A stretch of DNA of 64,000 nucleotides from NCBI GenBank assembly GCA_038245785.1, contig JBBRSB010000001.1, forward strand, positions 1 through 64,000, read 5' to 3'. The notes below the pieces were generated by a model, which did not search any database, was not told the DNA's origin, and saw nothing but the letters and a program-made list of their open reading frames with translations. Both the position numbers and the translations under genes were made by a program. Below, one piece after another: positions 7,218-18,163 of this stretch. Each line of letters opens with the position of its first letter. The stretch's first letter is position 1. This DNA comes from Gloeobacterales cyanobacterium. Its GTDB lineage: Bacteria > Cyanobacteriota > Cyanobacteriia > Gloeobacterales > PMM-0068.

Positions 7218-7318
7218 GGTGTTACGCTAGCCGTTGCTGTCTGAGCAGATGATTTCTAATGACTCAGCAGTCGTTTCATAAGGACTAGATCTTCTATCTA
7301 AAAATATTCCAAGTTTTC

Positions 7319-8026
7319 TCAAAGGGAAGTATGCCAATTTGCGACGGAGCAATCACGTGAATCTATCTTGCGGTTTTGTTGAAGCCACGGACGAGCTATA
7401 TTCGTTTCCAGTAATTCAAATGTTGTTATAATTGCTTGTATTAATTCTTTCCAGCGTTTCGAAACGGTCCCTTGCGAGATATTCAGTTCACTGGCGATTT
7501 GAGTTTGGCGTTTACCCAGAATTTTTGCTTCCAGTAGTTTGAGATATCCCCGTTTCGGATACTGGGCATCTAAAGTTTGAATAGAAATGTTAACCTTGTT
7601 GAGCAATTCTGCCTGTTCAATCGCTTCCCACACATTAGATTGGTCTGCGATCGTATCTAGAAGCGGGGTATTAGAACCGGAAAGCATACCATCTAGGCTT
7701 GTAGATTGCCGTGCTTTCTCTCGACGATTCAGATCGACAATGGTGCAGTGAGCAATCGTGGCAGACCATCGGTAAAATTCTGCTACACCTCCACGCTGAA
7801 ACTTATTAGACTGAATCGCCAGCAAGATCTTTTCATAAGCAGCTTGAGCAGCATCTTCCCAGGCAAGCGGAGTTCCTCTGGTTTGCTTACGGGCAATTTT
7901 CTCAATGATGCGGCGATAGTCTGAGGATTGGAGCAAGCGACTAAAGAGACAATAGGTTGAGTCGAGTGATTGCGGTAACGCAGCCAATGATTCTACTACC
8001 TTGAAATATTCTTTCTTTGAAGTCAT
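7319..8026 (-). CDS. ECF-like sigma-70 family sigma factor, divergent from the lanthipeptide cluster
   Basis: Region 2-like WEDAAQ...FYRWSATIAHCTIVDLNRR and region 4 HTH QTQIASELNISQGTVSKRW. GGAG RBS before ATG 8026; alternative start 8089. Confidence 0.75.
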   Translation of the reverse strand: MTSKKEYFKVVESLAALPQSLDSTYCLFSRLLQSSDYRRIIEKIARKQTRGTPLAWEDAAQAAYEKILLAIQSNKFQRGGVAEFYRWSATIAHCTIVDLNRREKARQSTSLDGMLSGSNTPLLDTIADQSNVWEAIEQAELLNKVNISIQTLDAQYPKRGYLKLLEAKILGKRQTQIASELNISQGTVSKRWKELIQAIITTFELLETNIARPWLQQNRKIDSRDCSVANWHTSL

Positions 8027-8477
8027 AAAAATCTCCAGAAGAAAATTATGAGAACTACCGATCTGAGCTAGGCGGCTAAAAATTTCCATTCAAAATCCGA
8101 ACAGCAAAAAAGCAATTTTTTAGCTAATACCTTAATTAGCTTTTGCTAACAAAGAGACCAGGTAACTGAAGATCTACATTGAGTCAAGAGCACTTGAAGA
8201 ATAAGGAGGGTGAAACACAATTGAGAAATAAATTATCTATCAATTTGCTTGGTTCTCTACTCAGTTCAATGTAGCAAGCTGCGAAGCTAGTGATATAGAT
8301 AATAAGAGCTTGAGCATTAGGTTTCAAGGGATAATCTTTCGATTCAATGATCTCTTCTTTCGGTTTTATTCTCAAGAATTGAGTTGCCTGCATAAGTATT
8401 TTTCGTCTGATCCGGCAACCCACCAAGGCTTTAGGGCAACGATAGATTAACTCTGATACCAAAACAATGTCTTCTAT

Positions 8478-8588
8478 ACTACAACTGATTCAATCCAGGA
8501 ATGGTGTCTTAAGTTTGCTCAAAGCTAGGCTCACCAGATCCGCCGTCGCTCCAAACCAGTACATACGTGGCACCTCGATGGAGTCGTT
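8478..8588 (+). mobile_element. IS6-family transposase relic
   Basis: Manual translation ...TDSIQEWCLKFAQS*AHQIRRRSKPVHTWHLDGVV resembles the IS6 segment TIRxWxxKFG...RRR....WHLDEV; internal stop. Confidence 0.7.
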
Positions 8589-8589
8589 T

Positions 8590-8617
8590 GGAATATTTTC
8601 ATTTGCATTTTCGATAT
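8590..8617 (+). promoter_or_regulatory. Repeated ECF-type promoter candidate, copy 1 (upstream of lanA1/lanA2)
   Basis: GGAATA-N16-CGATAT, identical boxes and spacing in three copies. Confidence 0.65.
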
Positions 8618-8688
8618 GAGATTTATAGGGGGCAGCCAAGAGAGAAACCTGTCAGCCCCAAAGTGTCGGAAACCAGAGGAGAGAAACA

Positions 8689-8913
8689 ATGTCACAGGAA
8701 AATATCATTCGGGCTTGGAAAGATGAAAGCTATCGGAAACAACTAAGCGAACAAGAGCTGGCACAACTCCCAGAGCATCCGGCAGGATTGGTTGAGTTAG
8801 GCGATTCAGAACTTGATGCGGCTGTAGGTGGCATTGGTCCATTTACGCGCATTCCTTGTTCTGCAGTTGATGCCTGCCCTTCGGCTTTAGAATGCACGAG
8901 AGCTTGTGATTGA
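8689..8913 (+). CDS. lanA: Class II lanthipeptide precursor A1 (mersacidin/lichenicidin-type leader); core IGPFTRIPCSAVDACPSALECTRACD
   Basis: IIRAWKD...LPEHPAG...ELDAAVGG leader; core with 4 Cys and 4 Ser/Thr; GAGGAG RBS. Confidence 0.92.
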   Translation: MSQENIIRAWKDESYRKQLSEQELAQLPEHPAGLVELGDSELDAAVGGIGPFTRIPCSAVDACPSALECTRACD

Positions 8914-8950
8914 GTTTGGAATTAAAACGAATGAAATCAAGGAGAAAAAG

Positions 8951-9184
8951 ATGTCCCATGAAAATGTGATTCGCGCCTGGAAAGATGAAGACTTTCGCAA
9001 TCGCTTAAGTCAAGAAGAGCGATCGCAATTACCCGATCACCCTGCAGGAAAGCTGGAGTTGACGGATGCTCAGTTGGGGAGTGCGGCTGGAGGCCGAAAA
9101 GCCAATACCGCTGCAGGAGATGAATCCTGTTACTCAGGAATTATTGCCTGCACACTTCCGATTTATTGTCCTATTGCCCAGTAG
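8951..9184 (+). CDS. lanA: Lanthipeptide precursor A2; core RKANTAAGDESCYSGIIACTLPIYCPIAQ
   Basis: MSHENVIRAWKD...LPDHPAG...AAGG leader; AAGGAG RBS before ATG 8951; 3 Cys. Confidence 0.92.
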   Translation: MSHENVIRAWKDEDFRNRLSQEERSQLPDHPAGKLELTDAQLGSAAGGRKANTAAGDESCYSGIIACTLPIYCPIAQ

Positions 9185-9254
9185 TGGAAGTTGAAACAAC
9201 CGATAATTGTAGTGTCAGTCTATGAAATTATCTTCCAAACTGACGCCAACCACT

Positions 9255-9282
9255 GGAATATTTTTGTTTAAATTTTCGATAT
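9255..9282 (+). promoter_or_regulatory. Repeated ECF-type promoter candidate, copy 2 (upstream of lanA3)
   Basis: GGAATA-N16-CGATAT. Confidence 0.65.
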
Positions 9283-9355
9283 GAGATTTATAGGGGTCAA
9301 CCAGGAGTTAAACCTCTGTCAGCCCCGAATTGTCTAAAACTAAAGGAGAGAAACA

Positions 9356-9583
9356 ATGTCACAGGAAAATATTATTCGTGCTTGGAAAGATTCAGACTAT
9401 CGCGATAGCTTAAGCAAAGCTGAGAAAGCGATGCTCCCTGAACATCCTGCTGGGTTAATGCAACTGAGTGATGAACAGCTCGGTGCTGCTGCTGGTGGAA
9501 TACCAAAAACCGACAGTGGTCCAATTTGTTTTCCAACAGAAGTTGGTCTCAGGTGCGCTCCACCACCTAGAGGATGCAGTTAA
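9356..9583 (+). CDS. lanA: Lanthipeptide precursor A3; core IPKTDSGPICFPTEVGLRCAPPPRGCS
   Basis: Conserved 48-aa leader ending GG; 3 Cys and 4 Ser/Thr. Confidence 0.92.
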   Translation: MSQENIIRAWKDSDYRDSLSKAEKAMLPEHPAGLMQLSDEQLGAAAGGIPKTDSGPICFPTEVGLRCAPPPRGCS

Positions 9584-9637
9584 ATCAGTTCGTGATGAAA
9601 ATAACCATTATGTTAACTTGAGAAATACTACATCGCT

Positions 9638-9676
9638 AGCCGGCAGATGAATTGAAGCTGGTTCATCTGCTCGGCT
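9638..9676 (+). terminator. Strong hairpin between lanA3 and the TPR gene (attenuator, terminator or stability element)
   Basis: AGCCGGCAGATGAA pairs with TTCATCTGC(T)CGGCT; only a weak U-tract follows. Confidence 0.55.
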
Positions 9677-9716
9677 CTTCCGGATTGACTATGCTTACGA
9701 AGTCGAGTAAATCTGA

Positions 9717-11297
9717 ATGAAAAAGCAGTCCCTTATTTTGGCTCTAATTTTCTCGCTCTTTATCGGCAGGCCTGCCTTCAGCCGAACGTACGCTCTCACC
9801 TCTAAATCTGAATTTTCCCGACAACATCACCCGATTTCAACCCGTAGTGTTGCAGCCCAACGTTTTTTTGATCAAGGACTCACGCTCGTTTATTCTTTTA
9901 ATCGTGAAGCAGCAACTCGTTCGTTTCAACGTGCAACTGAGTTAGATCCTCATGCGGCAATGGCATATTGGGGAATTGCTCTTGCTTTAGGTCCTAATAT
10001 TAATGTTGATAGTGACCCATCTCAACGCAAGAGCGCATATCAAGCTGCTCAGAGAGCCTTGTCATTAGCTTCTAATGCAACAGAAAATGAAAGAGCTTAT
10101 ATCAAAGCGATTGCCACCCGATATTCACAAGATTCTAATGCCGATCTCAACAAACTTGCTAAAGACTATAAAAATGCTATGCAGCAACTTGTTATGAACT
10201 ATCCTGATGACCCTGATGCAGCAACTCTGTTCGCTGAAAGTCTCATGGATCTGGGAAATGGGAATCTCTGGTCGGCGGATGGAAAACCAATTAATGATAC
10301 ACAAACTATTATCGACACCTTAGAGTCAGTGATGAAGCAACATCCCAATCATCTTGGTGCAAACCACTACTACATTCATGCAATGGATTCATCTTCTCAT
10401 CCAGAACGGGCCCTGTCGAGTGCTCAGATATTGGCTAAAGCAAAGTTAGAACCTGCAGCCGCACATCTTGCTCATATGCCTTCTCATATCTTCCTGCATA
10501 CAGGTGACTATGCCGCCGCGATTCACAGTAACGAAGATGCAGTTGCTCACGATCAGATTTATCTAAGTGATAAAATTAATCATCCTCAAGATACCTACCA
10601 TAGTCATAATTTAAAGTTTTTATTAGCTGCTTACAGTATGGCAGGGCGATTCACAGAAGCTCAAAAAGTAGCTGAACAAATTAAAACACCAAGTGGCCTA
10701 CCTTATTCCACCCTCTTACTTATTCACTTTGCACAGTGGGACAAGATTTTGCAGTTGTCTGAACCTGTTTTGAAAGACTCTCAGACTCATCTTATTTGGC
10801 ATTATGCTCGTGGTATGGCTTATGCGGCAAACCATTGTGTTGATCTGGCAGAAACAGAACTCAAGGAAATGTTGGATGGACTCAATCACGACTCTGAAAT
10901 GGGTATGCATGAAAATTCCCATCGAATATTTTATGAGACAATGCTCAGGGCCAAAATTGCCACAGCAAGAAATAACTTGCCATTAGCGATTCAATTCTTG
11001 AAAACACTGGTAGAACCGATAGATAAACTTCAAATGCTGCATGAACCTCCACTCTGGTATTTTTCAGTGAGGACATCCCTTGGAGCATCACTGTTGCTCA
11101 ATGGTGATTCTCGAGAGGCTGAGCAAGTTTTTCGAGATGATTTAAAGAAATATCCTCGCAATGGACGTGCTCTTTTTGGTTTGCTGGAAAGTTTGAAGTC
11201 ACAGAAAAAGATGGCTTCTATTCCATGGGTTCAGAGGCAACTTGATCTTGCCTTAAAAGATGTAGATTATCCACAACTGAAAATTCAAGACTTATGA
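9717..11297 (+). CDS. Secreted TPR-repeat protein of unknown function
   Basis: Sec-type signal MKKQSLILALIFSLFIGRPAFS; TPR-like AQRFFDQGL...ELDPHAAMAYWGIALAL; His-rich GANHYYIH and HLAHMPSHIF. Confidence 0.8.
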   Translation: MKKQSLILALIFSLFIGRPAFSRTYALTSKSEFSRQHHPISTRSVAAQRFFDQGLTLVYSFNREAATRSFQRATELDPHAAMAYWGIALALGPNINVDSDPSQRKSAYQAAQRALSLASNATENERAYIKAIATRYSQDSNADLNKLAKDYKNAMQQLVMNYPDDPDAATLFAESLMDLGNGNLWSADGKPINDTQTIIDTLESVMKQHPNHLGANHYYIHAMDSSSHPERALSSAQILAKAKLEPAAAHLAHMPSHIFLHTGDYAAAIHSNEDAVAHDQIYLSDKINHPQDTYHSHNLKFLLAAYSMAGRFTEAQKVAEQIKTPSGLPYSTLLLIHFAQWDKILQLSEPVLKDSQTHLIWHYARGMAYAANHCVDLAETELKEMLDGLNHDSEMGMHENSHRIFYETMLRAKIATARNNLPLAIQFLKTLVEPIDKLQMLHEPPLWYFSVRTSLGASLLLNGDSREAEQVFRDDLKKYPRNGRALFGLLESLKSQKKMASIPWVQRQLDLALKDVDYPQLKIQDL

Positions 11298-11427
11298 AAC
11301 GTGAGAGATTATTTATCTATTCTGAGTCACAGATATCATCAGGGGAGGAGGCGAACCTTGGGAGCAGTCGTATGATGATTCAGAATTGTAAGAAATGATC
11401 TAAGAAATGATCAATGTCCAAACCACT

Positions 11428-11455
11428 GGAATATTTTCATTTTCATTTTCGATAT
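11428..11455 (+). promoter_or_regulatory. Repeated ECF-type promoter candidate, copy 3 (upstream of lanA4 and possibly lanM-lanT)
   Basis: GGAATA-N16-CGATAT. Confidence 0.65.
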
Positions 11456-11526
11456 TAGATGTATAGGGGTTTTACAGGAGTTAAACCTGTCAGCCCCGAA
11501 TTATCTCAAACCAAAGGAGAAAAGCA

Positions 11527-11736
11527 ATGTCACAAGAAAATATCATTCGTGCTTGGAAAGATTCAGACTTTCGCAATAGCTTAAGTGAGGCTGAAAAAGC
11601 GCTGCTCCCTGAACATCCTGCTGGGTTAATGCAACTGAGCGATCGACAGCTCAGTGCTGTTGCTGGTGGAGACTGTAACCCAAACACAAATCTTACAGTA
11701 CAACGTATTGGCGGCAGGTGCATAGTTGAGCCATGA
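11527..11736 (+). CDS. lanA: Lanthipeptide precursor A4; core DCNPNTNLTVQRIGGRCIVEP
   Basis: Leader 41/48 aa identical to A3; 2 Cys and 2 Thr in the core. Confidence 0.9.
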   Translation: MSQENIIRAWKDSDFRNSLSEAEKALLPEHPAGLMQLSDRQLSAVAGGDCNPNTNLTVQRIGGRCIVEP

Positions 11737-12023: not shown

Positions 12024-15000
12024 ATGAGTCAATTTGATTTCGAAGCAAAAGATTGGTATCAGGCGATCGCACTGACCGAACGTATTGCTTTGTTGAAAAC
12101 TACTCAAAGTACACCATCAAAGATTGAACGCAATCCTGATCTCTCTCAGCGCAGTATTGATCGCTGGAAATCTCAGTCGCCATTCGATAAGGACGACTAC
12201 TTCAATCAGCGTCTTGCTACGGCAGATATCAGTGAAGAGGAATTTTTCTGTATCCTTGGAGAACCACTTGAAGCAGTGCAAGATCGCTATGATATTCCTC
12301 CAGCTTGGTTAACAGAACTAGAACAATCTTTCTCTCAACCTCTTGCCTCTGAACCGATGACGTTTCCAGAGGAGCTGAATGACATAGAAACGATCGGTTT
12401 CTTGGAAATCATCGAACCCTTGATTCGGCAAGGACGCGATCGCCTTCGCAAAGGAGTCGATTCAATCCAATCTAATTCATTCAGTCTTCCTTTTGATCCA
12501 GCAATGATTCATGATCTTTTATATGTTAATTTGCCAAGTCGATTGTTGATGATGGTCAGTCGGACCTTGGTATTGGAATTGAACATAGCGCGTTTACAAG
12601 GACTACTGCAAGGAGACACTCCCAAGGAGAGATTTCGAAGCTTTATCCAACGGCTGCGAAAAAGGGATGTTGCATTAAGTTTCCTACAGGAATATCCCGT
12701 ACTCGCGAGGCAGTTGACGATCGCAATTAATCAGTGGGTTAGCGTTAGTTTGGAATTTTTGAAACACTTGTCTAGTGATTGGGAAACGATTCGATCAACA
12801 TTCACGCCAGACCAAGATCCAGGGATGTTGACGGAAATGAGTGGTGGGGAAGGGGATAGCCATCGCGATGGGCGGAGTGTGGTGATTGCTAAATTTAGCT
12901 CTGGTTTTCGAGTGGTTTATAAGCCGCGATCGATGTCGCTGGATATTCACTTTCAAAACTTACTGAACTGGATTAACGAACGCGGAGATCATCCTCCGTT
13001 TCGGACCTTGCAAATTCTCGATCGCGGTTCTTATGGATGGGTTGAGTTTATCGAAGCTCAATCCTGTACCTCTGAAGCTGAAATTCAGCGTTTCTATGAA
13101 CGTCAGGGAGGATATTTAGCCCTACTTTATGCCCTCGAAGCCGTTGACTTTCATCACGAAAATCTGATTGCAGCGGGAGAGCATCCCATTTTGCTGGATC
13201 TAGAAGCGTTATTTCATCCTCGCGTTGGTGGGCTAGATCTCAAACAAGCAGACCAACTTGCCAATAGCACCCTGAGTTACTCCGTTTATGGCATTGGGTT
13301 ACTGCCTAACCGGGCATGGTCCACTAATGAGTCGGAAGGTGTCGATATTAGCGGGTTGGGCACAGCAGAGGGACAACTCACGCCTCATCGTGTTCCTCGA
13401 TGGGAAGGAGTGGGAACGGACGAGATGAAGCTGACTCGTAAGCAAATCGAGATGTCAGGTACGCAGAACCAACCCACACTCCATGATGAAAAAGTTGATG
13501 TCTTGAATTACGCTGAAGCGATCGCCAGTGGATTCACCAACTTATATCGCCTACTCTTAGAACACCGAGATGAGTTGTTAACGGAAAACGGACCGCTAGC
13601 TAGCTTTGCTAAAGATACCGTGCGCGTGATTGTTCGAGCCACACTAACTTATGCCATGTTGCTGAGCGAAAGTTTTCATCCCGACGTTTTACGCAATGCC
13701 CTGGATCGCGATCGCTTATTTGATCGACTTTGGGTAGGGATTGAACATCTTTCCCATTTGGCTAGGCTTATTCCTGCTGAGCGGGAAGATCTGCTGAAAG
13801 GAGATATTCCCATGTTCACGACTCGTCCTGAATCTCAGGATCTATGGACGAGTTCTGGTCAACGGATCGCTGGCTTTCTTGACAAATCGGGTTTAGATTC
13901 TGTTCAACGACGTATTCAACAACTTAGTGAAGCTGATTTAACACGACAACTTTGGATTATTCATGCATCGTTCACCTCACTCGTTCTCAGTACAGAAGGA
14001 TCGAAAAAACATTCTGCCCATCCTCTGACTGAATCCCAGATGATTGCAGCTCCTGAAAATTTGTTAGCTGCTGCTCGATCCATGGGCGATCGACTAGAGC
14101 AATTAGCCTTACGCGGGGAGCACGATGCGTCTTGGCTGGGGTTAACCTTAGTCAATGAGCGCCGTTGGTCGCTGGCTCCGCTCGGATATGACCTCTATGA
14201 TGGTTTGCCAGGAGTAATTCTATTTTTGGCTTATCTCGGAGCGATCACCGAAGAGGAACGCTACACAACCTTAGCCCGTGCTGCCCTCACCACATTCCAG
14301 CGTCAGCTAGAACGGAGCCAACCGTCCATCACTCAGATTGGAGCTTTTAACGGCTGGGGCGGTGTGATTTATGCCTTAACTCATTTGAGTTGTTTGTGGC
14401 ATCAACCTGCGTTACTTTCCCAGGCAGAGGAGCTGGTTCGACTGCTGCCATCGCGGATTGAGCAGGATGAAACGCTGGACATTATTGGCGGTGCAGCGGG
14501 TTGTATTGGAAGTTTGCTGACGCTCTATCAATATGCTCCATCTGACGCCACACTGAAGGCGGCTATCCAATGTGGCGATCGCTTGCTTGCGCTGGCGACT
14601 CCAGTGCAAGCCGGAATCGGTTGGATGTCAAAAGTCTCTACAAAACCGCTAACCGGATTCTCTCACGGTACAGCGGGCATTGCTTGGGCATTGTTGGAAC
14701 TCGCGGCCCTGACGGGGGAAAAACGTTTTCGCACAGCAGCATTGGCAGCGATCGACTATGAGCGCAGTTTGTTCTCTCCAGAGGTGTCGAACTGGCCCGA
14801 TCTACGAGAATTTGAAACCGCAGTTCAATCAGGCAACGAGGAACACGTTTCGTTCATGACGGCATGGTGTCATGGCGCACCGGGTATTGGGCTGGCTCGA
14901 ATGCGCTGTCTGCCGTATTTAGATGATGAAACGGTTCGAGCCGAGATTCGCACAGCGCTTGAAACAACGATCGCTCAAGGATTTGGTGGCAATCATTCCC

Positions 15001-15305
15001 TATGCCATGGGGATCTCGGTAATTTGGAATTGCTGTTGCAGGCCAGCGACGTTCTCGATGAACCTGAGTGGCGTTTTCAGGTCGCTCGTTTAGCAGGTCG
15101 TATCCTCGACAGCATTGCTCAACAGGGCTGCCGCTGCGGAATTCCATTAGGTGTGGAATCGCCCGGACTGATGACGGGATTAGCGGGCATTGGGTTCGGA
15201 CTGTTGCGCTTAGCAGAGCCAAAACGAGTTCCTTCCGTGCTAATGCTTGCTCCGCCGCACAGTAATTTAGTGAGATTAAGTGACCCTGAAAAAGTTTTAC
15301 GGTAG
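12024..15305 (+). CDS. lanM: Class II lanthipeptide synthetase (dehydratase plus LanC-like cyclase)
   Basis: YKPRS, DFHHENLIA and LDLEALFH dehydratase motifs; GFSHGTAG, WCHGAPGIG and LCHGDLG Zn-cyclase motifs; 1093 aa. Confidence 0.97.
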   Translation: MSQFDFEAKDWYQAIALTERIALLKTTQSTPSKIERNPDLSQRSIDRWKSQSPFDKDDYFNQRLATADISEEEFFCILGEPLEAVQDRYDIPPAWLTELEQSFSQPLASEPMTFPEELNDIETIGFLEIIEPLIRQGRDRLRKGVDSIQSNSFSLPFDPAMIHDLLYVNLPSRLLMMVSRTLVLELNIARLQGLLQGDTPKERFRSFIQRLRKRDVALSFLQEYPVLARQLTIAINQWVSVSLEFLKHLSSDWETIRSTFTPDQDPGMLTEMSGGEGDSHRDGRSVVIAKFSSGFRVVYKPRSMSLDIHFQNLLNWINERGDHPPFRTLQILDRGSYGWVEFIEAQSCTSEAEIQRFYERQGGYLALLYALEAVDFHHENLIAAGEHPILLDLEALFHPRVGGLDLKQADQLANSTLSYSVYGIGLLPNRAWSTNESEGVDISGLGTAEGQLTPHRVPRWEGVGTDEMKLTRKQIEMSGTQNQPTLHDEKVDVLNYAEAIASGFTNLYRLLLEHRDELLTENGPLASFAKDTVRVIVRATLTYAMLLSESFHPDVLRNALDRDRLFDRLWVGIEHLSHLARLIPAEREDLLKGDIPMFTTRPESQDLWTSSGQRIAGFLDKSGLDSVQRRIQQLSEADLTRQLWIIHASFTSLVLSTEGSKKHSAHPLTESQMIAAPENLLAAARSMGDRLEQLALRGEHDASWLGLTLVNERRWSLAPLGYDLYDGLPGVILFLAYLGAITEEERYTTLARAALTTFQRQLERSQPSITQIGAFNGWGGVIYALTHLSCLWHQPALLSQAEELVRLLPSRIEQDETLDIIGGAAGCIGSLLTLYQYAPSDATLKAAIQCGDRLLALATPVQAGIGWMSKVSTKPLTGFSHGTAGIAWALLELAALTGEKRFRTAALAAIDYERSLFSPEVSNWPDLREFETAVQSGNEEHVSFMTAWCHGAPGIGLARMRCLPYLDDETVRAEIRTALETTIAQGFGGNHSLCHGDLGNLELLLQASDVLDEPEWRFQVARLAGRILDSIAQQGCRCGIPLGVESPGLMTGLAGIGFGLLRLAEPKRVPSVLMLAPPHSNLVRLSDPEKVLR

Positions 15306-15322
15306 GTCATACGATTCGCATC

Positions 15323-15922
15323 ATGAAAAACACACAGCGTTCAATATTTCGTGAAGTAGCCATTCGTCGCTATATCGAAGGCAAAGAAACATCGGTTTTG
15401 CCGCGATTGGTATCACCTCGCACCTTTGTCTATTTATGGTCCCTGCTGGGATTACTTACAGCCAGTAGCTTTGTGGCTTGGTTTACCAAAGTTCCTGTGT
15501 ATGCTTCTGGTTCAGCCATGGTTGTCCGTTTAAACAATAGAACTCGTGACCCAACGATCGCTTTTGTGGCATTCTTTCCGGCTCGATATCTTACCAGCTT
15601 GCAAAACGCTCGGACCCTATTTTTGAAGTTTGATGCAATGGGCGATGATCGCTTCAGTCGCTCCATGATCAAGGTTGAACCCCAAATCTATAGCCCCGAT
15701 GCGATTCAGAAACAATTTGCGCTGAACGCTCGAACAGCACAAACGGTGACACAACCCTCAGCCGTTGTGGTTGCTGCGCTACTCGAAAAAAACGCGCCTG
15801 AGCAGCTCCAAACTTTACCTGCATCAACCTTACTCGGCAGTGTGGGTCATGCTGAAGTTGAGGTGGAATCGCAGCAAATGATTTCTCTGTTGCCCCTGAT
15901 TGGAAAAAATTTTGAACCCTAA
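15323..15922 (+). CDS. Membrane-anchored bacteriocin secretion accessory protein (short, HlyD-like N-terminus)
   Basis: SIFREVAIRRY, one TM helix and VPVYASGSA; located between lanM and lanT. Confidence 0.6.
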   Translation: MKNTQRSIFREVAIRRYIEGKETSVLPRLVSPRTFVYLWSLLGLLTASSFVAWFTKVPVYASGSAMVVRLNNRTRDPTIAFVAFFPARYLTSLQNARTLFLKFDAMGDDRFSRSMIKVEPQIYSPDAIQKQFALNARTAQTVTQPSAVVVAALLEKNAPEQLQTLPASTLLGSVGHAEVEVESQQMISLLPLIGKNFEP

Positions 15923-15925
15923 TTC

Positions 15926-18163
15926 ATGAAGAGAGCACCATCCATCCCTACAGAACTGGCTCCAATGAATGCGCGATCGAAACAGCATACCCCTCATTGG
16001 TTTAAGCGGTTCTCCTCTCATCGAGTCCCCGTGCAACTGCAACTGACTGCAGTTGAATGTGGAGCGGCTTGCCTAGCTATGATTCTCAGTTACCATGGCA
16101 GGCACACGCGCATCGCTGAATGCCGAACGCTCATGGGGATCGGTCGGGATGGTGTGACGGCCGAGACAATTGCGAAAGCGGCTCGCCTGTTCGGTTTGCG
16201 TGTGAAAGCATACTCGATTGAAGATCTGACTGATTTTCGGTATATTCAACTTCCAGCCATCGCCCACTGGGGGTTTGAGCATTTTGTGGTAGTAGAGCAC
16301 TGGTCTGCAAAGGAAGTGGAGATTGTTGATCCAGGTGTCGGACGACGACGACTCACGGTGAAACAATTCAATGATGGTTTTACTGGTGTGATACTAACGT
16401 TTGAGCCAGGCGTTCAATTCAAGCGCCATCATCCCAAAGCTCAATTCACCTTGTGGAACTATATGCTCCACTATGGTCTACAGATGACGGGCGTACTATC
16501 CCAAATCTTGGCCACATCTCTGTTCTTGCAACTGCTTGGGTTAGCGTTACCGATCGCCACAAAAGTTTTGGTCGATAGCATTCTTCCATTTCATCTCACG
16601 AGCATGATGTCGATCGTTGGCATTGGGATGCTCATTCTCATCCTGTCGCAATGGGTGACCAGTTACTTACGGGCAGTGCTACTCATCTATTTACAATCGC
16701 GTCTGGATACTCGTTTAATGTTGGGTTTTTTCGATCACCTGTTGACGCTCCCCTTTCGTTTCTTCGAGCAACGCACCGTAGGGGATCTGTTAATGCGTCT
16801 TGGCAGTCACACCATGATTCGAGAAACGCTTACCAGTCAGACCCTCTCAATACTGCTAGATGGTTCGTTTGTGTTGGGATATCTCATCCTGTTATTTGTT
16901 CAAGCACCCTCATTTGGCATCACTGCTATGGGTATTGGATTGCTTCAAATCATGCTTTTACTCGGTACTACTCGTCGAGTGCATGACCTGATGCAACAAG
17001 ATTTGGTGGCTCAAGCAGAATCCCAAAGTTATTTAGTCGAAGCCTTGACGGGGATTCAAACGTTAAAAGCATGTGGATCTGAAGATCGTGCCTTTGATTA
17101 CTGGTCTAATTTATTCTTTAAACAATTGAATGTCTCGCTCCAACGCAACCACTTAAGCGCACTGATCGATACAACGCTGCTGTCTTTGCGGATCTTCTCT
17201 CCCCTTCTCCTGTTGTGGATTGGCGCGCTCTCTGTGCTCAATGGCACGATGAGCTTGGGCACAATGTTGGCACTGAATGCGATCGCGACGGCCTTCTTAA
17301 CCCCTCTATCCTCGCTCATTTCAAACGGTCAGCATGTGCAATTAGTCGGTGCTCATCTCGAACGGCTCACCGATGTACTGACAGCAGAACCAGAGCAGCT
17401 TTTGCAGGGTGTTCAACCTGCACCTTTGCTAACGGGGCACGTTACCTTAAGCAAAGTTCGTTTTCGGTATGATCCGAATGCTCCAGAGGTCCTGAACAAC
17501 ATTTCTCTAACGATCGAACCGGGCCAGAAAATCGCCCTGGTGGGTCAGTCTGGATCTGGGAAAAGTACGCTGGCCAAGCTATTGCTGGGGCTTTACCTGC
17601 CGACGGAAGGAGAAATTTTGTATGACGGATTCTCCTTACAAACCCTGAACTGGCGGACATTGCGAAGTCAATTTGGGATCGTTCTCCAAGAACCATTTCT
17701 ATTTAGTGGTTCGATCCGCCAAAACATCACGGTCAATAACCCCAGTCTTTCATTGGAGCAGGTGCAAACAGCAGCAAAACTTGCAGCCATTCATGATGAT
17801 ATTATGCAGTTTCCGATGGGGTATGAAACCCGAATTTCTGAAGGGGGAAACGGACTTTCGGGAGGACAACGCCAACGCGTGGCGATTGCTCGGGCCTTGG
17901 CGCATCAGCCAGCCATTCTGCTGATGGATGAAGCTACGAGTCATTTAGATAGTGTCACAGAAAGCTTAGTAGAACGGAATTTAAGCCAACTTTCCTGTAC
18001 TCGAATCGTGATTGCCCATCGCTTAAGTACAGTTCGCAACGCAGACATCATCTTTGTGCTGGAGAAAGGAAAAATTGTCGAGCAGGGGTCTCATCAAACC
18101 CTCTTTGATCGACAAGGATACTATTCATCGTTATTTCGGGAAGGGGCCTTGCAGTCAACTTAA
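15926..18163 (+). CDS. lanT: C39 peptidase-containing ABC exporter
   Basis: QLTAVECGAACL and HFVVV C39 motifs, TM domain, [17 protein letters not shown] and MDEATS. Confidence 0.95.
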   Translation: MKRAPSIPTELAPMNARSKQHTPHWFKRFSSHRVPVQLQLTAVECGAACLAMILSYHGRHTRIAECRTLMGIGRDGVTAETIAKAARLFGLRVKAYSIEDLTDFRYIQLPAIAHWGFEHFVVVEHWSAKEVEIVDPGVGRRRLTVKQFNDGFTGVILTFEPGVQFKRHHPKAQFTLWNYMLHYGLQMTGVLSQILATSLFLQLLGLALPIATKVLVDSILPFHLTSMMSIVGIGMLILILSQWVTSYLRAVLLIYLQSRLDTRLMLGFFDHLLTLPFRFFEQRTVGDLLMRLGSHTMIRETLTSQTLSILLDGSFVLGYLILLFVQAPSFGITAMGIGLLQIMLLLGTTRRVHDLMQQDLVAQAESQSYLVEALTGIQTLKACGSEDRAFDYWSNLFFKQLNVSLQRNHLSALIDTTLLSLRIFSPLLLLWIGALSVLNGTMSLGTMLALNAIATAFLTPLSSLISNGQHVQLVGAHLERLTDVLTAEPEQLLQGVQPAPLLTGHVTLSKVRFRYDPNAPEVLNNISLTIEPGQKIALVGQSGSGKSTLAKLLLGLYLPTEGEILYDGFSLQTLNWRTLRSQFGIVLQEPFLFSGSIRQNITVNNPSLSLEQVQTAAKLAAIHDDIMQFPMGYETRISEGGNGLSGGQRQRVAIARALAHQPAILLMDEATSHLDSVTESLVERNLSQLSCTRIVIAHRLSTVRNADIIFVLEKGKIVEQGSHQTLFDRQGYYSSLFREGALQST

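Follow-up and report, generated by a model that had tools for sequence, protein, structure and literature searches.

Extracytoplasmic function (ECF) sigma factors that are encoded inside a biosynthetic gene cluster and read promoters private to that cluster are already a known concept. In the microbisporicin cluster of Microbispora corallina, the sequence GAACC-N15-GCTAC precedes five mib genes or operons and is read by the ECF sigma of the pair sigmaMibX-MibW (PMC4973701, PMC3933326); the planosporicin ECF is cited as a second lantibiotic case besides MibX. In heterocyst-forming cyanobacteria, the sigmaHetZ-PatU3 pair comprises a proven ECF-type sigma factor with a co-transcribed likely anti-sigma, and reads TCCGGA-N16-17-TG (PMC13342950). 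The present study concerns a stretch of 64,000 nucleotides from a Gloeobacterales cyanobacterium (contig JBBRSB010000001.1, positions 1 to 64,000; "the window"), in which a sigma-70-family gene (7319–8089, minus strand) is divergent from the genes of a class II lanthipeptide (lan) cluster, and in which three precursor genes are each preceded by a copy of GGAATA-N16-CGATAT. On sequence grounds, we consider it probable that this sigma factor reads the repeated motif and drives the lan cassettes as a local regulon. A first-pass annotation of the same DNA had contrasted such sigma control with the LanRK systems of lantibiotics; the contrast overstates the novelty, as ECF control of lantibiotics is already established for MibX (PMC4973701).

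The three motif copies were confirmed at 8590, 9255 and 11428 on the plus strand, each about 100 bp before a lanA gene (99, 101 and 99 bp from the start of the motif to the ATG). No match to GGAATA-N16-CGATAT occurred in 100 shuffles, and a scan of the 5.0-Mb genome, as proposed in the first-pass annotation, showed the three window copies to be the only matches with a 16-nt spacing, where 0.67 are expected per spacing. The conserved element is larger than the two hexamers (TGGAATATTTT...ATTTTCGATAT) and, as seen in the alignment, forms the 5' edge of a block of about 100 bp that is duplicated through to the ATG. With a matrix made from the three copies, no comparable 28-bp site was found elsewhere in the genome, the next best scoring 18 bits versus 41–44. 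These 28-bp sites are referred to below as the predicted promoters P1 (8590–8617), P2 (9255–9282) and P3 (11428–11455), all on the plus strand, with a putative -35 element GGAATATTTT, 12 intervening nucleotides and a putative -10 element CGAT. Following sigmaH numbering, start sites are predicted at 8624–8625 (P1), 9289–9290 (P2) and 11462–11463 (P3), a few nucleotides ahead of a weakly supported GGGG/CCCC hairpin.

Homologues of the window sigma factor constitute a discrete family (29 database matches; 42 cluster representatives at E<=1e-30), for which 114 loci were collected: 79 from taxon-named genomes (from the best 80 of 93 matches), all of them cyanobacterial, and 35 from metagenomes. 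The sigma gene is present in 15 of 400 other genomes of the class. In a quick tree the window sigma factor is nested in a clade of nine rows (SH-aLRT 100), the nine proteins being 60–100% identical. The anticipated co-occurrence of sigma homologues with lanM clusters was not borne out, as none of the 114 family loci carries lanA or lanM, which argues for a lineage-specific recruitment and not for a sigma family dedicated to lanthipeptides.

A promoter-like motif could nevertheless be recovered beside these distant homologues, at loci without lan genes nearby. The homologues were reduced to 59 at <85% identity, and all gapped pairs of 4-mers were counted in 56 upstream regions, with the window excluded. 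The top pair, pointing away from the sigma gene, was GGAA-N19-GTTA (15 of 56 regions versus 0.6 expected), followed by GAAT-N18-GTTA and, lower down, GGAA-N18-CGTT (10 of 56 versus 0.4 expected), giving an overall divergent motif GGAATATTTT-N12-(C/T)GT(T/A). An iterated matrix converged on 23 sites of the form TTTCGGAATATTTT-N12-CGTTATAG, with high information in both boxes and little in the middle of the spacer. This matrix, built without the window, detected 62 sites of at least 17 bits in 41 of 58 loci, including 16 loci with two to four copies; the -10 element is CGTT in 43 sites, TGTT in 10 and CGTA in 9. Among the genes behind the family sites (the first open reading frame being assigned mechanically) are some for proteins with a signal peptide, for secreted proteins rich in repeats and, in at least six cases, for short peptides of the double-glycine type. 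Control searches gave no site in 369 kb of sigma-less lan loci and one in 2.04 Mb of reversed loci.

Counts per column within the family are circular, as the sites were chosen by the matrix; the match of the window copies is not. Of the 17 positions (within positions 1–26) at which 80% or more of the family sites agree, all three copies match 16; none of these 17 is one of the four spacer positions at which the copies differ from each other. Relative to the family form GGAATATTTT-N12-YGTW, the single departure is an invariant T replaced by A. Among about 10 million positions, P1, P2 and P3 rank 5, 152 and 19 with the full matrix, and 2, 62 and 7 when the third -10 column is made neutral; within the window, the family matrix found no further high-scoring plus-strand site. 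The earlier idea that the sigma factor drives the precursor genes through private promoters is therefore strengthened by the motif match beside lan-less homologues, but has to be qualified because one invariant -10 base differs.

Precursor genes of the same type (TIGR03898) are found in 11 of the 400 other genomes, and the motif was not found in the lan loci of these 11. In the three closest clusters (LanM 63–64% and exporter 66–68% identical) a GerE/LuxR gene lies directly upstream of lanA, and no sigma homologue was found in their genomes. Since the closest clusters combine a LuxR-type gene with sigma-less genomes, the window arrangement looks like a lineage-specific change of regulator. The same comparison can be turned the other way: the repeated element could be a housekeeping promoter with only a -10 box (TATTTT at 8594–8599, kept in all three copies, agrees with TAnnnT), or it could bind an activator, e.g. 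of the LuxR type, whose gene lies elsewhere, the ECF look of the element being coincidental. This we regard as quite improbable, because the 16/17 match to an independently found family motif would then be due to chance, because the lanA upstream regions of the three closest clusters showed no copy of the window's promoter block, and because no full-length homologue of their LuxR protein was found in the window's genome, which has four matches at the helix-turn-helix level.

The invariance of the boxes inside the window is by itself weak evidence. In the three-copy alignment, invariant columns amount to 12/12 in the boxes, 12/16 in the spacer, 12/15 in the next 15 nt and 40/58 in the remaining leader, and homology begins at the -35 edge, with only 6/40 invariant columns upstream of it. 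The described contrast of invariant boxes and a drifting spacer holds as a count, but the boxes are not distinct within the duplicated block: the difference between them and the remainder of the first 43 nt lacks significance (Fisher p=0.16), and that from the whole block has p=0.035. Comparing box conservation with that of the remaining duplicated DNA is therefore ambiguous by itself: the boxes are not singled out within these 43 nt, but the 43 nt as a unit exceed synonymous sites, being invariant at 36/43 positions versus 4/14 fourfold-degenerate sites in the leader codons (p=0.0002, from three copies and with gene conversion possible). Conservation that spans the whole 100 bp to the ATG, with boxes not significantly better kept than their surroundings in the first 43 nt, is what would be expected if the repeats were a by-product of recent cassette duplication or gene conversion, without a regulatory role. 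Yet the adjacent synonymous sites are far more diverged, the homology stops at the -35 edge, and the motif is matched family-wide, so that we give this explanation hardly any credence.

In related strains the cassettes appear to vary in number and order, with one joint inside the promoter. A 1583-bp contig of a related strain (run X9) extends through the sigma gene to 8606 and resumes at 9272, in register inside the motif; this is one contig of low depth, and it may be misassembled. In runs X2 and X7, an extra lanA3-like segment precedes lanA1. These two runs also show no cover over the sigma gene, but as no contig spans the hole, nothing is concluded from it. Among 40 of 198 strain difference rows, those for P2 fall at 9270–9271, in mid-spacer, and outside the boxes. 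A cassette is duplicated together with its promoter, 5' leader and leader-peptide DNA, so that any added precursor copy would become part of the regulon.

A number of observations weigh against the proposed pairing of the sigma factor and these promoters. The base after CG in the -10 element is T in 63 of 63 family sites (that column being unscored) and A in all three window copies, and ECFs are reported to be stringent at -10 (10.1101/534826 section 10). With the full matrix the window copies score 13.6 (P1), 2.7 (P2) and 10.5 (P3) bits, all below the 17-bit threshold. Linkage of sigma and lan genes is seen only in near-identical strains, and in the two other genomes that have both they are unlinked and the lan locus has no site; a search for lanA paired with 60–70% identical sigma factors likewise gave none beyond a near-identical strain, a weak negative covering the best 120 of 1908 lanA matches. 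The genome encodes 18 sigma-70-family proteins over the cut-off, several of them ECF-sized. Among 16 separately fetched sigma loci, sites of at least 17 bits occur in 4 and of at least 14 bits in 6; one of those 4 loci duplicates a training locus and two have sigma factors 86–88% identical to training sigmas, and several loci are cut by contig ends. A strict form of the family pattern does favour the pairing, being present in 8 of the 15 genomes that have the sigma gene and in 36 of the 385 that lack it (three matches lying within 2.2 kb of the sigma gene), but this contrast is inflated by kinship, by the large size of sigma-carrying genomes and by coding background (TGGAATAATTTG). Finally, all family counts include related loci, which are not independent of each other, and the residue-base covariation described below reduces to a single evolutionary event, as one of its two groups is a single clade.

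Part of this evidence would fit a reading in which the promoters descend from the family promoter but the pair has come apart, another resident ECF being used or the promoter being too weak, with the sigma factor left as a passenger. Besides the A in place of the family's T and the 17 other sigma-70-family proteins over the cut-off, this reading is favoured by the failure to find the usual partner, as neither the partner profile nor DUF1822 was found in the window's genome (98% complete; positive controls were detected). We think such a separation unlikely: the sigma frame is intact and its DNA-contact segments are family-typical, all three copies retain the whole -35 and the T-tracts, a general regulon would be expected to leave 28-bp sites comparable to the window copies, which the genome scan did not reveal, and the sigma gene is still linked to a cassette in a related strain.

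Structural work on sigmaH offers a frame for the deviating base. In its open complex, residue N92 makes contact with the -11 base pair, which marks the upstream edge of the -10 element; T-10 is held by W81/I85/N88 and T-9 by the specificity loop (10.1101/534826 section 10). At the position equivalent to sigmaH N92, the family has Asp with C as first -10 base in 31 loci and Asn with T in 8, the latter being the single clade referred to above, while one locus has both paralogues; the window sigma factor has Asp97 and promoters with C, in agreement with an Asp-C rule (alignment via SigW). A short loop that contains proline characterises the one clade made up of the four CGTA loci, although a similar loop also occurs at a locus with CGTT. 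These residue-base patterns, each confined to a single clade, are consistent leads rather than statistics. The window clade differs near the pocket at Ser87 (Ala in 49/58), at His92 in 6/9 members (Arg/Lys in 52/58) and at Thr94. Cys93, the N88 equivalent, is common to 11 other members including CGTT readers, and so does not explain the T-to-A change. Either the specificity has shifted, or the promoters were tuned down for an inhibitor-less sigma factor, or the pair has come apart.

The sigma gene encodes 256 residues from the first ATG, or 234 from the ATG at 8023. Its assignment as a sigma factor with regions 2 and 4 stands: the product passes TIGR02937, albeit narrowly (44.9 versus a cut-off of 42.9 bits, covering residues 58–220), and the family profile matches with E 1.9e-73. 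Agreement with the family consensus is seen in region 2.2 (EDAAQ), at the Trp of region 2 and in the helix of region 4. An AlphaFold model (pLDDT 77.8) has two helical domains, with about 25 residues between helices 80–106 and 128–154 (the domain borders being approximate, and group 3 sigmas also occurring among the structural matches). Every match in the Foldseek list is a sigma factor or a complex containing one. SigL, SigE, SigH and SigW are among the structural and profile matches, SigW and SigL being profile matches. As the Pfam region 2 profile stays below its cut-off and TM-scores are low (0.23–0.30 by query), the protein is best seen as a divergent ECF member.

The absence of an anti-sigma or two-component gene beside the sigma gene was upheld, none being identified among 19 open reading frames scanned between 2585 and 25488; the neighbours are a convergent GNAT gene on one side and the lan cluster on the other. 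Positive autoregulation, like a co-transcribed anti-sigma a hallmark of ECFs though not a universal one, is lacking as well: no motif copy was found on the sigma gene's own strand within 8023–8600, and the enriched family site is oriented away from the sigma gene. A sigma-70-like TTGAAA-17-TATTAT at 8327–8299 (minus strand) could be its own promoter, although the scan gave 12 such sites versus 9.1 by chance. A lone GGAATATTTT without a matching -10 element lies at 7301–7310 (minus strand), just beyond the sigma stop codon, where a partner gene would start; it is probably there by chance, such 10-mers being common in the genome.

In the family at large, the sigma gene has a conserved partner gene in 86 of 112 loci, nearly always just downstream on the same strand. 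Long partners contain DUF1822 (4/4 scanned), and two short ones gave no match at all. A further large co-oriented gene follows the partner in 18 of 44 non-redundant partner loci, and 13 of these 18 encode pentapeptide-CHAT proteins. Neither a DUF1822-type partner nor a CHAT protease adjoins the window sigma gene (three CHAT genes lie on other contigs), which is a family member by sequence and not an intact sigma/DUF1822/CHAT module. With partner and protease genes missing at the locus, its output is likely set by synthesis and degradation of the sigma factor, and not by release from an anti-sigma.

We propose that the ECF-like sigma factor recognises GGAATATTTT-N12-CGAT, with transcription starting about 65 nt before lanA1, lanA3 and lanA4. 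The local regulon would consist of the three duplicated cassettes and, by presumed read-through, also of lanA2, the gene for a tetratricopeptide-repeat (TPR) protein, lanM and the exporter gene. The sigma factor comes from a cyanobacterial family in whose usual loci the sigma gene is accompanied by a DUF1822-type partner and, in many cases, by a pentapeptide-CHAT protease, while several private copies of the promoter stand ahead of genes for secreted proteins or peptides in the vicinity. In the window it would fill the regulatory role apparently held by a LuxR-type activator in the closest lan clusters. The motif, the gene identities, the family motif with its match and the failure to find a partner are observed; binding, start sites, read-through and the mode of control at this locus are what we infer from the DNA. 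A more far-reaching scenario, which we put forward tentatively and consider doubtful as a whole, is that the sigma factor of a protease-gated sigma/DUF1822/CHAT switch was recruited in LuxR's place, its -10 specificity being rewired from CGTT to CGAT (candidates Ser87, His92 and Thr94) to give a private, orthogonal regulon, and that the promoter block doubles as a cassette recombination site, with one LanM serving a self-expanding peptide library.

The cluster comprises four precursor genes, a TPR protein, LanM, a 199-residue membrane protein and an exporter with a C39 peptidase domain, all on the plus strand. Its first gene, lanA1 (8689–8913; 74 residues, mersacidin/lichenicidin-type; TIGR03898, 72.1 bits), follows P1 and a duplicated 5' leader (8618–8688) which, in the three-copy alignment, has a GGGG...CCCC stem and a GGAG ribosome site. 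The stem is predicted in all three leaders, albeit weakly (z = 0.52, 0.62 and -2.01; not significant in two of the three). The motif-less lanA2 (8951–9184; 77 residues, 67.6 bits) starts 37 nt after lanA1 and is likely co-transcribed from P1, and lanA3 (9356–9583; 75 residues, 72 bits) follows P2. Downstream of lanA3, a strong hairpin at 9638–9676 (plus strand; folding of 9584–9716, z=-3.62) is likely a 3' stabiliser or an attenuator ahead of the TPR gene (9717–11297; 526 residues), whose product was recognised from weak Pfam TPR matches below the cut-off and has, by eye, a signal-peptide-like N terminus. P3 precedes lanA4 (11527–11736; 69 residues, 70.9 bits), and lanM (12024–15305; class II lanthipeptide synthetase; TIGR03897, 1095 bits), which has no motif of its own, is likely read through from P3. 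The precursors are thus the four TIGR03898 genes starting at 8689, 8951, 9356 and 11527, and their cores carry 2–4 Cys and 2–4 Ser/Thr, as expected of class II lanthipeptide precursors with a double-glycine leader.

The 199-residue membrane protein (15323–15922, plus strand) has no family match in profile scans; its first 60 residues, and those alone, are conserved at the equivalent position of the three lan clusters closest to this one. This position is often occupied by an HlyD-type adaptor. The LanT-type peptidase-containing ABC exporter (15926–18163, plus strand) has Peptidase_C39, ABC_membrane and ABC_tran domains. The TPR protein, placed between two precursor cassettes, looks secreted and has His-rich motifs (HLGANHYYIH, AAHLAHMPSHIF); none of the 11 further lan loci examined encodes it. 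A stretch of about 60 bp just 5' of P1 (8486–8548) matches other loose-ended contigs in three runs and may be a small dispersed repeat.

In lan clusters elsewhere, the closest LuxR-type clusters share a conserved lanA upstream block of their own with a 5' inverted repeat, and pair the LuxR/GerE regulator with a divergent TPR-CHAT gene (L137:9296-9874, L138:10352-10933, L139:3719-4327). AGATGTATAGG, a part of P3, recalls AGATGTGTGGG from the region ahead of lanA in the LuxR-type clusters; as the distances differ, this likeness was set aside. The DNA of the window's promoter block gave only ribosome-site, coding and short weak matches in the 400 other genomes. Four other cyanobacterial lanA genes (L118, L119, L120, L122) have palindromes like AATGATAATCATT in the 160 bp ahead of them; these resemble a Fur box, and three of the four clusters adjoin an SLH-OprB porin gene, which suggests that their lanthipeptides may be iron-regulated.

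As for the sigma family, a Nostoc-rich clade (L115, L084, L026, L008, L023, L055, L030), sister to the window clade (support 85), has a short partner of about 230 residues without DUF1822, and repeated promoter copies before small double-glycine-type peptides. The conserved N-terminal part of the partner (e.g. L033:10751-12145) has no Pfam match; for one partner, an Atlas model match (residues 21–156, TM 0.78) to a PemK/MazF-like cluster is under the bar for naming and is a lead only. Two family proteins (P0048 and P0051; 344 and 523 residues) have a duplicated C-terminal region-4-like segment. Plasmids yielded one 42% homologue. In viral contigs the motif was matched 120 times, but the viral DNA examined contained neither a homologue of sigma, lanA, lanM or TPR nor any sigma relative.

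If the proposed pairing is true, a sigma factor and its promoter would be named for the direct transcription of cyanobacterial lanthipeptide precursor genes, for which the literature searches made found no report. For a cyanobacterial ECF family it would also provide target lists, a predicted promoter and a rule that links residue to base (Asp-C, Asn-T), and the natural T-to-A at an otherwise invariant -10 base would allow the rewiring of ECF specificity to be tested directly. A sigma/promoter pair free of a partner would be a simple handle for activating the cluster or for building an orthogonal switch.

The family promoter is not described in the parts of PMC8103513, PMC6648896, PMC7826278, PMC9679502 and PMC11119718 drawn on here, and no report of it was found in the literature searched; the supplements of PMC8195603, PMC7826278 and PMC13342950 could list the family. 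With canonical ECF promoters it shares the bipartite GGAAT...CG(T) geometry and a T-tract after the -35 element (PMC8103513; 10.1101/534826 section 10), whereas canonical promoters have AAC and CGT (sigmaH G-11 T-10 T-9) where the window has a GGAAT -35 and a CGAT -10. The -35 element of sigmaHetZ has a CGGA core (PMC13342950), and the family motif begins TT(T/C)CGGAAT, although the window copies lack TCCGGA. HetZ differs further in its size of about 400 residues, its domain insertions, its hundreds of promoters and a -35/-10 distance 2–3 nt shorter in the same register. The EACC2-caspase neighbourhoods with an ECF sigma and a DUF1822 protein (Kaur et al., eLife 2021, PMC8195603) recall the DUF1822 partners and pentapeptide-CHAT proteins of the window sigma's relatives, but the window sigma stands alone, and that paper, in the parts drawn on, gives no promoter or targets.

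Like sigmaAntA of the antimycin cluster of Streptomyces, the window sigma factor is a cluster ECF with no co-encoded anti-sigma and a conserved promoter of its own (PMC3933326). AntA, however, serves a non-ribosomal pathway in actinomycetes, reads a different promoter and is an orphan across its family, whereas most relatives of the window sigma factor keep their partner. With MibX it shares the cluster-situated ECF gene, the repeated private promoter and the lantibiotic cluster; MibX, on the other hand, has an anti-sigma, autoregulates and leaves the precursor operon mibA to MibR (PMC4973701), whereas in the window the motif stands directly before precursor genes, there is neither an anti-sigma gene nor a self-promoter, the peptide is of class II and the host is a cyanobacterium. 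The window sigma factor may accordingly work like a cluster-situated ECF with private promoters, although we do not assign it to the MibX type.

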